Assembly (NCBI GenBank): GCA_965219535.1
Contig: CBDCNV010000001.1
Location: forward strand, 1,200,001-1,232,000
Direction of reading: 5' to 3'
Length of the DNA stretch: 32,000 nucleotides
Source of the DNA: Opitutales bacterium
GTDB lineage: Bacteria > Verrucomicrobiota > Verrucomicrobiia > Opitutales > PNEW01
The notes under the pieces are model-generated. The model did no database searches. It saw only the letters and a list, made by a program, of their open reading frames with translations, and was not told the DNA's origin. Positions 1,831-25,201 of this stretch are shown in pieces; position 1 is the stretch's first letter; each line of letters opens with the position of its first letter. Both the position numbers and the translations under genes were made by a program.

Positions 1831-2066
1831 TAACTAAGCCCCGGAGGGGCGGCATAGTCGTAGCCCACAGCGCAAGCTGTGGGTTTGGAGTTAAAAAAAA
1901 TCCAGAGCCCCAGCGGGGCGACACAACTTCTTATTCAACCGGAATTGTGTCGCCCCTCCGGGGCTATTTCTTAATCTACATTAATTTACCCACAGCTCAC
2001 GCTATGGGCTATGTTTGTTCCACCCCTCCAGGGTGTGTAACCTGATTCACTGTTTGCTTTCTCATT
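1831..2066 (+). repeat. Nested-palindrome core element (REP/REPIN-like), copy 1
   Basis: Aligns by hand to 13796-14031 with about 17 substitutions and 2 single-base indels. It contains GTAG+cccacagc-gcaa-gctgtggg (1860-1883) and an inverted twin at 1989-2008. It also has a 21-bp helix 1906-1926 / 1945-1965 and GCCCC-N3-GGGGC mini-palindromes at 1838-1850 and 2023-2033. Confidence 0.8.
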
Positions 2067-3734: not shown

Positions 3735-4925
3735 ATGATGTCATGGAAGGAAACAAATAAAATGGACCAAAGATACCAATTCGCCCTGGAATCGATGCAA
3801 CCGGGAGTAAAGATGAACGAGCTGTGTGAAGACTACGGGATCAGCCGACCGACAGGGTATAAATGGAAGAAGCGCTTCCTGAGCGAAGGGATGGAGGGGT
3901 TGCACGAGCGCTCACGCCGACCGCATGGAAGTGTTCAGGAACTATCCGAATCAGTAGTATGTACGCTGATCAAACTCAAGCATCATCACCCGACGTGGGG
4001 CCCCTACAAGATCCGCGAGCTTTACCAGAGGCGTTACGGGAAGGCCCCCTCAGACTCGAGCGTGAAACGGGTCTTGGAACGTGCGGGACTGGTGCAAAAG
4101 CGTCGGCGCAGAAGCGCTCAAAAAAGCGGACGCCTTTACCGCAGCGTCAAGGCCAGTGGCTGTAACGAAGTGTGGAGCGTAGACTTCAAAGGGTGGTGGC
4201 ACACCGTTGATGGCAACCGTTGTGAACCTTTGACGGTACGGGATGAATGGAGCCGCTATGTATTAGAGGTGCGGGTGCTCAGTTCAGCCCGTAGCGAAGC
4301 GGTGCGTGAATGCTTCACAAAACTCTTTGAACGCTATGGACTTCCCGCTTGCATCCGCAGCGACAACGGCAGTCCCTTTGCCAGTGCCAATGCGGTCCTG
4401 GGCCTGAGCAAACTGGCGGCCTGGTGGCTGGCCTTAGGGATCAATCTCGAGCGTGGACGTCCGGGTAAACCCCAGGATAACGGTGCCCATGAGCGTCTCC
4501 ATCGCGATATCAAAGAGGAGTTGCAAAAACATGCCCAGGACGATCTTCGCACCCAACAGGTGGCCTTCGATCTGTGGCGCAAGACCTTCAATGAAGAACG
4601 CCCCCATGCGGCTCTTGCCATGAGCACGCCCTCTGAAATCTATCAGCACAGCTCTCATCCTTACGGTGGCACTCCTGCCGATATCAGCTATGATTTGATG
4701 ACTCGCCGGGTCTCAAAAAGCGGGTCTATCAAACTCGATGGCTTCCAGATTCCTATCTCCACCGCCCTCGCCGGTTGGAGCGTTGGACTAAAACCACTAG
4801 ACACGGTACACTTCGATGTTTACTTTGCCACTCTCAGAATCGGTCAGATTGACCTTTCAACGGCTGCTTTCATTGGGGCCGCTTGCGGCCCCAACAATGC
4901 CAGCCAAACCTCTAAAACCGCATAA
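3735..4925 (+). CDS. Transposase with N-terminal HTH and integrase-core (rve, DDE) domain, IS481-like
   Basis: 396-aa ORF. The N-terminus (NELCEDYGISRPTGYKWKKRF) is HTH-like. The core has WSVDFKG...IRSDNGSPF...HERLHRDIKEE, typical of rve transposases. The start could instead be the ATG at 3762 (MDQRYQF). Confidence 0.85.
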   Translation: MMSWKETNKMDQRYQFALESMQPGVKMNELCEDYGISRPTGYKWKKRFLSEGMEGLHERSRRPHGSVQELSESVVCTLIKLKHHHPTWGPYKIRELYQRRYGKAPSDSSVKRVLERAGLVQKRRRRSAQKSGRLYRSVKASGCNEVWSVDFKGWWHTVDGNRCEPLTVRDEWSRYVLEVRVLSSARSEAVRECFTKLFERYGLPACIRSDNGSPFASANAVLGLSKLAAWWLALGINLERGRPGKPQDNGAHERLHRDIKEELQKHAQDDLRTQQVAFDLWRKTFNEERPHAALAMSTPSEIYQHSSHPYGGTPADISYDLMTRRVSKSGSIKLDGFQIPISTALAGWSVGLKPLDTVHFDVYFATLRIGQIDLSTAAFIGAACGPNNASQTSKTA

Positions 4926-4974: not shown

Positions 4975-5044
4975 TGTAAACCATGTCTTGATCTAAATCT
5001 GTAAACCATGTCTTGATCTAAATCTGTAAACCATGTCCTGGTTG
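4975..5044 (+). repeat. IS right-end subterminal repeats, three copies with 25-bp phasing, inverted relative to the left end
   Basis: tgtaaaccatgtc starts at 4975, 5000 and 5025. The first two units are identical 25-mers (tgtaaaccatgtcttgatctaaatc). Confidence 0.8.
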
Positions 5045-13499: not shown

Positions 13500-13795
13500 A
13501 ATCTTCGTCTCTGATTGATTAAGAACTATTTTGCTATAAAGCTTGTGAAACTAGGTGGAGCGGGCTGTCCCTAGCACGCTTCTTAAATGACCACTACTTA
13601 AACGCGCTAGGGACAGCGCGTTCCACCTTAATATTGATTGTTCAATCTAACTTGGACGAAGACGATGAGCTCAGCCGAATCGCAGCCCGCTCCACCTTGA
13701 GCTACAATATTTATGAAGTATCAGGGCGTATCCTACAAGACGAAGATCTGTTACACTCTATCCTAAAGGTTCTTCAGCGTTATTACCAGGGGGTC
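13500..13795 (+). repeat. HEAD hairpin plus leader module, copy 2a (expanded by inserts)
   Basis: The 5' arm is aatcttcgtct (13500-13510), and the 3' motifs are ggacgaagacgatgag (13654) and gacgaagat (13739-13747). The loop carries a 23-bp hairpin, 13553-13575 / 13606-13628. Positions 13664-13753 recur at 14183-14272 with 4 substitutions. Confidence 0.7.
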
Positions 13796-14031
13796 TTTAA
13801 CTAAGCCCCGGAGGGGCGATATAGTCGTAGCCCACAGCGCAAGCTGTGGGTTTGGGGTTAAAAAAAACCAGAGCCCCATCGGGGCGACACAACTTCGCTT
13901 CCAACCGTAATTGTGTCGCCCCGATGGGGCTAATTCTTAATCTACATTAATATACCCACAGCTCACGCTGTGGGCTACGTTTGTTCCACCCCTCCAGGGT
14001 GTGTAACCTGATTCACTGTTTGCTTTCTATT
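13796..14031 (+). repeat. Nested-palindrome core element (REP/REPIN-like), copy 2
   Basis: Homologous to 1828-2066. It has GTAG+hairpin at 13827-13850 and an inverted twin hairpin at 13955-13974 followed by CTAC (13975-13978). There is a perfect 21-bp helix 13872-13892 / 13911-13931 with an 18-nt loop. Confidence 0.8.
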
Positions 14032-14272
14032 AATCTTCGTCTTCGTCCACGTCAGTCTCTTCGTCTGTTATAGAGATCCTATTATTTTATAAGGAATGGA
14101 GGGACGCATTCCATTGCGTCCGCTTTGAAATGATATTAAAGCCACGATCAGACGATGCCAAGGCTATGTCGGACAGGACTTCGATGAGCTCAACCGAATC
14201 GCAGCCCGCTCCACCTTGAGCTATAATATTTATGAAATATCAGGGCGTATCCTACAAGACGAAGAGCTGTTA
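14032..14272 (+). repeat. HEAD hairpin module, copy 2b (different loop insert, truncated 3')
   Basis: aatcttcgtcttcgtccacgtcagtctcttcgtctgttatag matches copy 1a. The loop insert contains the ggacgca-ttccat-tgcgtcc hairpin. The 3' part (14183-14272) repeats 13664-13753. Confidence 0.7.
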
Positions 14273-24985: not shown

Positions 24986-25061
24986 GTGAATTGAAACCGA
25001 ATAGTAGAGCGCGAATTTATAAAATAAAGAATTAAGATCCAAATACGTTTAAAATAATATT

Positions 25062-25182
25062 TTCGTCTTCGTCTGCGTTTGCCTCTTCGTCCCTGTTATT
25101 GCAAGCCGTGAAAAAAAGAGGACGAATACGATAAGGCAGACCCGTCTTCACAGAAACCTTCAACGTGGCAAGCGAAGACGAA
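25062..25182 (+). repeat. Solo HEAD hairpin repeat
   Basis: ttcgtcttcg (25062-25071) pairs with cgaagacgaa (25173-25182). Internally, gcctcttcgtccctgttattgcaagccgtg...aagaggacgaatacgataaggcagac is homologous to 1700-1770. Confidence 0.7.
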
Positions 25183-25201
25183 GCTATTTTGATACCCCAT
25201 A

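Follow-up and report, generated by a model that had tools for sequence, protein, structure and literature searches.

The DNA analysed here is a stretch of 32,000 nucleotides from an Opitutales bacterium (contig CBDCNV010000001.1, positions 1,200,001 to 1,232,000), which we refer to as the window. Sequence comparison revealed two copies of an inverted doublet of about 200 nt, at 1837-2036 (locus 1, between divergent genes) and at 13804-14002 (locus 2, between convergent genes). A global alignment of 1828-2066 with 13796-14031 displayed 16 substitutions and 3 gap columns, of which one opens the alignment and the other 2 are internal one-base indels. An earlier reading of the same sequence, the first-pass annotation, had described this end-to-end alignment with about 17 substitutions, and the recount agrees with it. 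The limits that it gave to the element (1828-2066) hold for the alignment of these two copies, but the unit conserved across genomes is only 1837-2036, outside of which the flanks of the related loci L064, L131, and L141 are unrelated. The segment 2037-2066 and the left flank back to about 1770 are common only to the two window loci and belong to a different, co-located repeat family.

Each half of the doublet is a module of about 90 nt, and the two halves face each other (-> <-) across a loop of 18 nt, with a distance of 150 nt from TAG to TAG. On its own strand, a module consists of hairpin A, a spacer of 9-10 nt, the trinucleotide TAG, hairpin B, an A-rich linker of about 23 nt, hairpin C, and a tail. 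Hairpin A is of the type GCCCC-GGA-GGGGC, hairpin B has 8 bp and a 4-nt loop, and the tails across relatives read, for example, GACACAA, GACATA, or GACAGA. The left module of locus 1 (1837-1926, plus strand) is supported by its match to the Rfam family RF01687, by its fold as single-stranded DNA (ssDNA), and by cross-genome conservation. It comprises hairpin A at 1838-1850 (GCCCCGGAGGGGC, read as GCCCC-GGA-GGGGC), TAG at 1861-1863 with a G at 1860, hairpin B at 1864-1883 (CCCACAGC-GCAA-GCTGTGGG), the linker at 1884-1906, hairpin C at 1907-1919, and the tail GACACAA at 1920-1926. The central loop occupies 1927-1944. The right module (1945-2036, minus strand), of a right type that is also found in L064, L131, and L141, comprises the tail at 1945-1951, hairpin C' at 1952-1964, the linker at 1965-1988, hairpin B' at 1989-2008 (loop GTGA on the minus strand), the foot ATAG (CTAT at 2009-2012 on the plus strand), and hairpin A' at 2021-2035 (CACCCCTCCAGGGTG).

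The left module of locus 2 (13804-13892, plus strand) has hairpin A at 13805-13817, TAG at 13828-13830, hairpin B at 13831-13850, hairpin C at 13873-13885, and the tail at 13886-13892. The 18-nt loop at 13893-13910, placed by sequence and by alignment of the copies, is followed by the right module (13911-14002, minus strand), with C' at 13918-13930, B' at 13955-13974, the foot GTAG (CTAC at 13975-13978 on the plus strand), and A' at 13987-14001. The two inverted cccacagc-N4-gctgtggg hairpins of locus 1, with loops GCAA on the plus strand (1864-1883) and GUGA on the minus strand (1989-2008), are as the first-pass annotation had stated, GNRA-type loops included. Other details of its anatomy changed. 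Its outer pair is correct at 1838-1850, but the partner, given as 2023-2033, is the hairpin at 2021-2035; the helix around the 18-nt loop, formed by 1907-1926 with 1945-1964, has about 20 bp (21 in that annotation); and the tetranucleotide GTAG (at 1860-1863 in the left module of locus 1), claimed before each hairpin, precedes it in three of the four window modules, whereas the right arm of locus 1 has ATAG.

The pattern of a TAG followed by the hairpin had 8 matches in the window (4 sites, each on both strands), against 0.01 expected. Folded as RNA, the locus was far more stable than shuffled sequence (plus strand, z of -10.2; minus strand, z of -12.8). As ssDNA, every window module folded into exactly three hairpins, with z values from -4.0 to -5.2 (left and right modules of locus 1, -5.2 and -4.0; of locus 2, -4.2 and -4.6). 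The 16 substitutions between the copies fell in the 18-nt loop (5, as the first-pass annotation had counted), in the 3-nt loops of the C hairpins (4), and in the linkers (6), and the last one turned a T.G wobble into a C-G pair. None of the 16 broke a stem, a TAG foot, or a GACACAA tail. The substitution pattern is purifying, in agreement with the selection on pairing that had been proposed from these two copies.

A third doublet was found in the same genome (L158, 1900-2110), 5.5 kb to the left of window position 1 and between two minus-strand genes. Its flanks are unrelated to those of both window loci, and it is 85.8% identical to the doublet of L131. About 40 kb of the source genome thus hold three doublets, and the unrelated flanks of the third one indicate that the family is dispersed there. 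The matches of the source genome to other loci covered only the element and a few other small repeats, with no synteny. The sequence AACTAA stands directly 5' of the left arm in all three copies of this genome, and may be a target or end motif.

A covariance-model scan identified the left arms as Acido-Lenti-1 (RF01687), on the minus strand, at 1837-1883 (38.5 bits) and 13804-13850 (37.0 bits), with a gathering score of 37 bits. The right arms scored below it (24.5 bits at locus 1 and 32.0 bits at locus 2). The Rfam family covers the part of the module that spans hairpins A and B. No tRNA, tmRNA, or other Rfam family was found in the window by the Rfam and RNA scans, and a search of the full-text literature with the hairpin sequence returned unrelated primers only. 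Acido-Lenti-1 was proposed in 2010 as a candidate small RNA (sRNA) of unknown function in Acidobacteria and Lentisphaerae, was graded a likely RNA by Weinberg et al. 2010, and received a single comment on its context, namely that it is sometimes close to group II introns (PMC2864571).

To characterize the family, we searched one-genome-per-species collections with an exact 19-base pattern of TAG plus hairpin B, which retrieved at least 120 loci. These came mostly from Acidobacteriota, Verrucomicrobiota, and Planctomycetota, and also from Armatimonadota and Bacteroidota. Among the matches listed, the largest number of loci from one single metagenome-assembled genome (MAG) was at least five. Among 164 modules found with this pattern, 130 had hairpins A and C of at least 5 bp each at fixed spacing. 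The distance from A to TAG was 9-10 nt in 96 of these 130, and that from B to C was 21-25 nt in 98. The hairpins themselves are diverse: 92 distinct sequences of A and 75 of C occurred among the 130 modules, and the stems of hairpin B include the variants CCCACAGC, CCCACGGC, CCCAGGGC, and CCGTGGGC.

A generic detector of hairpin B found 232 modules, 118 of which were paired face to face in 59 doublets; in these, the median distance from TAG to TAG was 156 nt. Another 29 doublets came from a scan of metagenomes in which the central C-C' stems alone served as the key. Further copies, which the first-pass annotation had named as the thing to look for, are therefore present in the source genome and well beyond it. 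Among the matches listed, L141 and L131 (75-76% identity over 200 nt) came nearest to the window doublet, together with L064 from an Opitutales MAG, and the heterodimer of a left-type and a right-type module was kept in all three and in the window, with unrelated flanks.

Modules also occur in tandem and in the same orientation. A Limisphaerales MAG carries seven copies at a spacing of 101-291 nt (L077, 3134-4441), tandem modules also lie in L102 (983-1072) and L097 (5819-6695), with a spacing of 67-70 nt outside L077, and the Rfam seed alignment holds Lentisphaera copies 200 nt apart. These arrays resemble clusters of the bacterial interspersed mosaic element (BIME) type. The array of L077 and the Lentisphaera seeds raised the idea of an integron attC or CRISPR-like array, which was rejected by eye only, given that the R'/R'' core sites misfit. 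The GTAG families of repetitive extragenic palindromic (REP) sequences in O. terrae were also rejected, because the peptides of intragenic O. terrae REPs indicate other sequences; identity with one of GTAG-17 to GTAG-20 is unlikely but conceivable.

Covariation was measured on subsets of the same geometry, since MAFFT left hairpins A and C out of register. It was strong in all three hairpins. In hairpin A both sides change in five of six pairs, and the score of 0.258 (0.092 when shuffled) was reached in 0 of 500 shuffles. Hairpin B, in a set chosen by the C stems only, varied on both sides in six of its eight pairs (55 cells, 90% paired), with a score of 0.52 against 0.125 shuffled (0 of 500) and 0.05-0.16 in slid controls. 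These are the compensatory changes that the first-pass annotation had wanted to see in an alignment of all copies. Both searches had required TAG; among arms located by hairpin pairing alone, it was present in 31 of 38. The base before it was G in 96 of 130 modules of one set and A in 21 of 38 arms of another. Thus, the foot is NTAG.

The loops carry a strand signature. In 30 of 38 arms, hairpin B has a GNRA loop on the strand of that arm, and in none is its loop the complement of GNRA; the loops of A and C were mostly GNA (GGA, GAA). GNA triloops closed by C-G are classic, very stable mini-hairpins of DNA, a lead rather than a test of the module. Since each arm has these loops on its own strand, the favoured loops of a doublet lie on opposite strands, which does not fit one transcript and fits recognition of each arm on its own DNA strand.

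This bears on the explanation that the element is a structured sRNA gene, as Rfam annotates Acido-Lenti-1, or one large noncoding RNA, in which the hairpins are kept for the function of the RNA. The matches to RF01687 that reach the gathering score, the strong covariation, the GNRA tetraloops, and the published grading as a likely RNA all speak for it. Yet one transcript cannot carry the GNRA/GNA signature of both arms, and the strand modelled by Rfam is the non-GNRA strand. The modules form inverted doublets and tandem arrays (seven consecutive copies in L077) and also surround a transposase gene; the window loci display no promoter excess, and the central loop and linkers vary freely. The first-pass annotation had offered a large structured RNA as its alternative; the conserved unit turned out to be the half-element and not the whole palindrome, and we consider an RNA gene of either kind very unlikely.

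The neighbourhood of the modules provided insights into a protein partner. All open reading frames (ORFs) that reach 90 aa in the 120 loci listed were clustered, and the only enriched family was a Y1_Tnp protein of about 150 aa (PF01797, E about 1e-24), which was present in 14 of the 120. Next in frequency were sigma-54 activators, TonB-type receptors, LepA, and aldehyde dehydrogenase. The link to group II introns was rejected, as no reverse-transcriptase family was enriched among the 2536 ORFs of these loci.

The Y1 proteins passed the NCBIfam model of IS200/IS605 transposases (62-67 bits, cutoff 55). The model of REP-associated tyrosine transposases (RAYTs; NCBIfam NF047646, cutoff 80) gave 28.5 bits for one Y1 protein and no match for the other. 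Their closest solved relative is ISDra2 TnpA (E about 1e-4), to which they align in both the HUH and the Y motif. The proteins display the motifs DH[IV]H, WQ, and YIxNQxxHH (Y-x3-Q-x2-HH), and by these motifs and a length of about 150 aa (about 148 aa in the subclass) alone they are predicted members of TnpA_Y1 subclass 1.2. This subclass has been described as low-copy, without features of an insertion sequence (IS), and without REP partners (Quentin et al. 2018, PMC6006769).

In eight loci (L011, L016, L038, L063, L072, L073, L097, and L101) the gene is bracketed by inward-facing modules (-> gene <-). In the tightest loci the distance from hairpin B to the ends of the ORF is 45-50 nt, which is the length of linker, hairpin C, and tail together. 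At L011, one C tail directly adjoins the stop codon, and about 10 nt separate the other from the start codon. The gene sits between two C tails in L011, L038, L063, L097, and others, and therefore occupies the place of the window's 18-nt loop. As the same two inward-facing modules bracket a Y1 gene elsewhere, the window doublet looks, from its sequence, like a gene-bracketing unit in which the gene was deleted down to the 18-nt loop. A more distant Y1 gene in a Kapaibacterium MAG (L005, 3968-4637) is flanked by the CCCACAGC/GCTGTGGG hairpin in a different context (GGCCCATAT..., loop CTCA), without A or C hairpins and in an ambiguous orientation.

The association also holds when the search starts from the protein. 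Homologues of the Y1 protein formed 2852 clusters at E <= 1e-10, named RayT in JGI and IS200/IS605 in NCBI, and seven loci for six homologues were fetched. RF01687 was detected within about 110 nt of the Y1 gene in all seven (E from 4e-10 to 1e-3), and on both sides of it in four (L122, L124, L126, and L128). A Y1 gene flanked by the same palindromes, which the first-pass annotation had proposed as a check on its interpretation, is thus found in other genomes, and from either direction. In L122, L123, and L124, the gene (2001-2453) occupies one syntenic site, with G3P_acyltransf/GFO_IDH_MocA on one side and LpxB/HIT on the other, and the arrangement of the modules around it differs among the three. 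From this syntenic position with differing modules, the Y1 gene looks resident and not like a hopping IS. LpxB was called as two ORFs in L122 and L123, beside the modules.

The same data can be read in another way, in which the doublets are remnants of an ordinary active IS of the IS200/IS605 family, of the type of miniature inverted-repeat transposable elements (MITEs) or palindrome-associated transposable elements (PATEs), and not REPIN-like (that is, akin to doublets of inverted REPs) partners of a fixed, domesticated enzyme. Such an origin would agree with the IS200/IS605 score of the enzyme and its best alignment to ISDra2 TnpA, and with the fact that enzymes 83-92% identical bear the labels of different phyla, which suggests horizontal spread. 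It agrees poorly with flanks that are inverted repeats, unlike the ends of IS200/IS605, and with the single syntenic gene position of L122-L124, whose proteins are only 75-83% identical to the query. Furthermore, most protein clusters are found on 1-2 contigs, the protein type is low-copy and lacked IS properties in the survey of Quentin et al. 2018 (PMC6006769), and no tnpB gene accompanies it among the neighbour genes of the loci. We regard an origin from an active IS as distinctly unlikely.

Outside the doublets, a second repeat family of long imperfect hairpins, ATCTTCGTC(TTCGT)...GGACGAAGACGA...GACGAAGAT, flanks both window loci. One unit lies at 1682-1830 (no strand assigned; direct-repeat families D2, D3, and D5), and further copies lie at 2067-2197, about 13500-13790, 14032-14272, and, standing alone, 25058-25183. 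The sequence ATCTTCGTC has 7 matches in the window against 0.32 expected. The element lacks this family in its flanks in L131, in L141, and at the third doublet, and the family adjoins modules in two Opitutales MAGs (L044, 5417-5485; L064, 2865-2960 and 3207). A conserved stretch of it, GGCAGACCCGTCTTC..GTGGCAAGCGAAGACGAAG, is common to Opitutales MAGs (92% over 51 nt). These hairpins could represent a MITE- or REP-like family of their own or the context of the insertion sites, and their distribution suggests that both families use common sites or are clustered in a BIME-like manner.

The two window loci are alike beyond 1837-2036 because both are embedded in these repeat units, with a common left flank of about 65 nt and a common right flank of about 55 nt. 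The shared flanks are what would be expected if the doublets arose by a local segmental duplication of intergenic DNA only, without wider meaning, a possibility that the first-pass annotation had already raised. The two window copies do share flanking repeat DNA, as that explanation says, and part of their likeness probably goes back to a composite duplication, but the 200-nt unit recurs with unrelated flanks in the third copy of the same genome, and again at 75-86% identity in L064, L131, and L141. A plain segmental duplication is thereby already refuted, and we give it a negligible chance.

The positions of the doublets between genes raise the question of a role for the host. The element may have been kept, however it spread, as a bidirectional terminator or a protector of mRNA ends. 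The C hairpins are followed on the opposite strand by T-rich runs and were flagged as terminator-like: locus 1 has 4 such signals, 2 of them C hairpins, against 0.6 expected, and locus 2 has 3, again including 2 C hairpins, against 0.8. The linker from B to C is 35% A, against a background of 21%, and the convergent genes around locus 2 would suit termination. However, the T-runs are weak and, in many modules, set apart from the stems, the genes around locus 1 are divergent, and a terminator leaves hairpin B, the TAG foot, and the link to Y1 genes unexplained. As the reason for which the element is maintained it is unlikely, and such a role is compatible with mobility rather than a true alternative to it.

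Several other features were observed in and around the window. The left flank of locus 2 contains a further small hairpin element, AGGTGGAGCGGGCTGTCCCTAGC...GCTAGGGACAGCGCGTTCCACCT (13552-13629), which over 79 nt has 88.6% identity with an Opitutales MAG (L044, 5252-5330). Beside it, a direct repeat of 91 nt (13663-13753 and 14182-14272, 96% identical) brackets the doublet of locus 2. An IS481-family transposase gene (rve, HTH_32, LZ_Tnp_IS481) lies at 3735-4925; the segment 3679-3788 just upstream is 83.6% identical to L141 9532-9639 and is probably an IS end. A 25-nt unit, TGTAAACCATGTCTTGATCTAAATC, is perfectly duplicated in tandem at 4975-5024, and a similar sequence, TGTAAACCATTTCCTGACCTAAATCTGTAAACGATGATCTGG, follows on the right side of the third doublet (within L158 1781-2270). 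The ENA contig ERZ25067264:ctg830199 matches the window exactly except for one tandem duplication: the 72-nt segment 1404-1475 (L158, 8988-9131) is single-copy in the window and doubled in that contig. This difference, inside a 2-kb intergenic region, is an assembly or strain polymorphism.

Based on these findings, we postulate that each window locus is a mobile, non-autonomous, gene-less REPIN-like doublet of two Acido-Lenti-1-type modules, and we put the probability of this at roughly 0.72. By analogy with IS608/ISDra2 and with TnpA-REP of E. coli, the following mechanism can be envisaged. At an ssDNA stage, hairpins A, B, and C would form in each arm on the strand of that arm. A Y1 enzyme with its gene elsewhere in the genome would then recognize hairpin B together with the TAG foot on its 5' side, which might act like a guide tetranucleotide. 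This enzyme would cleave and rejoin the ssDNA nearby, so that the doublet would be moved or copied as a unit. It can further be speculated that the doublets act secondarily as bidirectional barriers to transcription.

We also lean towards a broader proposal, in which Acido-Lenti-1 would be the DNA partner of Y1 enzymes of subclass 1.2. Together they would constitute a hitherto unrecognized, cross-phylum REPtron-like system, built on a three-hairpin unit, that emerged from the IS200 branch, independently of the canonical RAYTs, and the window doublets would be its gene-less progeny. To our knowledge, no paper links Acido-Lenti-1 with subclass 1.2; none was found in the literature.

Several observations weigh against the interpretation as a mobile REPIN-like doublet. 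The loci examined showed neither a transposition event nor an empty site or a target duplication. No Y1 gene was found in the 32-kb window by tblastn, in agreement with the first-pass annotation, which had seen no RAYT gene there, nor in the gene list of the 7.6 kb beyond its left end. With 28.5 bits against a cutoff of 80, the associated enzyme falls short of the curated RAYT model, and its closest solved relative is ISDra2 TnpA, not TnpA-REP of E. coli. As the ends of IS200/IS605 are not inverted repeats, the mechanism is not simply transferable from either model. Finally, both window copies lie amid the same flanking repeats, so that one of them at least may be the product of a duplication that copied a larger composite, and not of transposition of the doublet alone.

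If correct, these proposals have implications for the understanding of resident mobile DNA in bacteria. An Rfam family carried since 2010 as an sRNA without known role would gain a function and a mechanism, and IS200-like Y1 enzymes that were described without IS ends or REP partners would gain a DNA substrate. Mobile DNA of the REPIN/RAYT type would extend from Proteobacteria to Acidobacteriota, Verrucomicrobiota, and Planctomycetota. The three-hairpin module of about 90 nt, with its TAG foot and GNRA/GNA loops, would offer a defined biochemical substrate, and matches to RF01687 of this kind would better not be counted as sRNA genes in annotation.

Among known systems, the closest parallels are the REPtrons of Enterobacteria and Pseudomonas, in which REP/REPIN sequences are associated with a RAYT. 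Both systems have two inverted units that form a hairpin doublet and, here in other genomes, a single HUH/Y1 gene bracketed by inverted units; a short palindrome with a 5' (G)TAG foot and its presence in multiple copies between genes are probable further parallels. In E. coli, TnpA-REP acts in a strand-specific manner, binding and cutting single-stranded REP, for which GTAG is needed (PMC8266576). The REP/REPIN reading of the first-pass annotation therefore stands with regard to inverted doublets, multiple copies, and a bracketed Y1 gene, but the unit is a module of about 90 nt with three hairpins (A, TAG-B, and C with a GACAnA tail) instead of one REP of 20-40 nt, and its foot is NTAG. The RAYT that it proposed as a partner likewise stands as a Y1 gene bracketed by TAG-hairpin modules elsewhere, but this enzyme is IS200-like. 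It has Y-x3-Q-x2-HH where canonical (class 2) RAYTs have Y-x3-NP, and fails NF047646. Unlike in REP/RAYT systems, several phyla have one and the same hairpin-B sequence and enzymes that are nearly identical.

The IS200/IS605 family and its hairpin-ended MITEs (PATEs) share with this system a Y1 HUH enzyme, with ISDra2 TnpA as the closest solved structure. Their subterminal hairpins, the guide tetranucleotide 5' of the foot, and single-strand transposition may have counterparts in the module. They differ in that the flanks described here are inverted, whereas IS200/IS605 ends are not inverted copies, and in that the gene here is syntenic, probably low-copy, and has no tnpB among its neighbours. 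Unusual inverted structured repeats, which can be multi-copy, also flank the Y1 genes of Acidobacteria and Planctomycetes known as TIRtrons/TIRYT (Di Nocera et al. 2013) or class 3 TnpA_Y1 with a 'CnGA-foot' (Quentin et al. 2018). Both were rejected as a match: the acidobacterial TIRYT enzymes carry Y-x3-NP and belong to a different protein class, and class 3 has Y-x4-Q and about 178 aa, unlike the proteins here.

Two further comparisons concern the parts themselves. Acido-Lenti-1 (RF01687) matches the A+B part of the module, with scores that reach its gathering score or exceed it, both in the window (left arms) and beside Y1 genes, and the taxa in which it was first described, Acidobacteria and Lentisphaerae (PVC-group, like Verrucomicrobiota), fit the present distribution. 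The Rfam record describes 46 nt of an sRNA on the strand opposite to the GNRA strand, whereas here this segment is part of a longer module that forms inverted doublets and brackets a transposase gene. As for the enzyme, TnpA_Y1 subclass 1.2 (PMC6006769) displays the same DH[IV]H, WQ, and YIxNQxxHH motifs, about 150 aa, and a low copy number; unlike in the published description of this subclass, its Acidobacteriota and Verrucomicrobiota members here are tightly bracketed by structured repeats.

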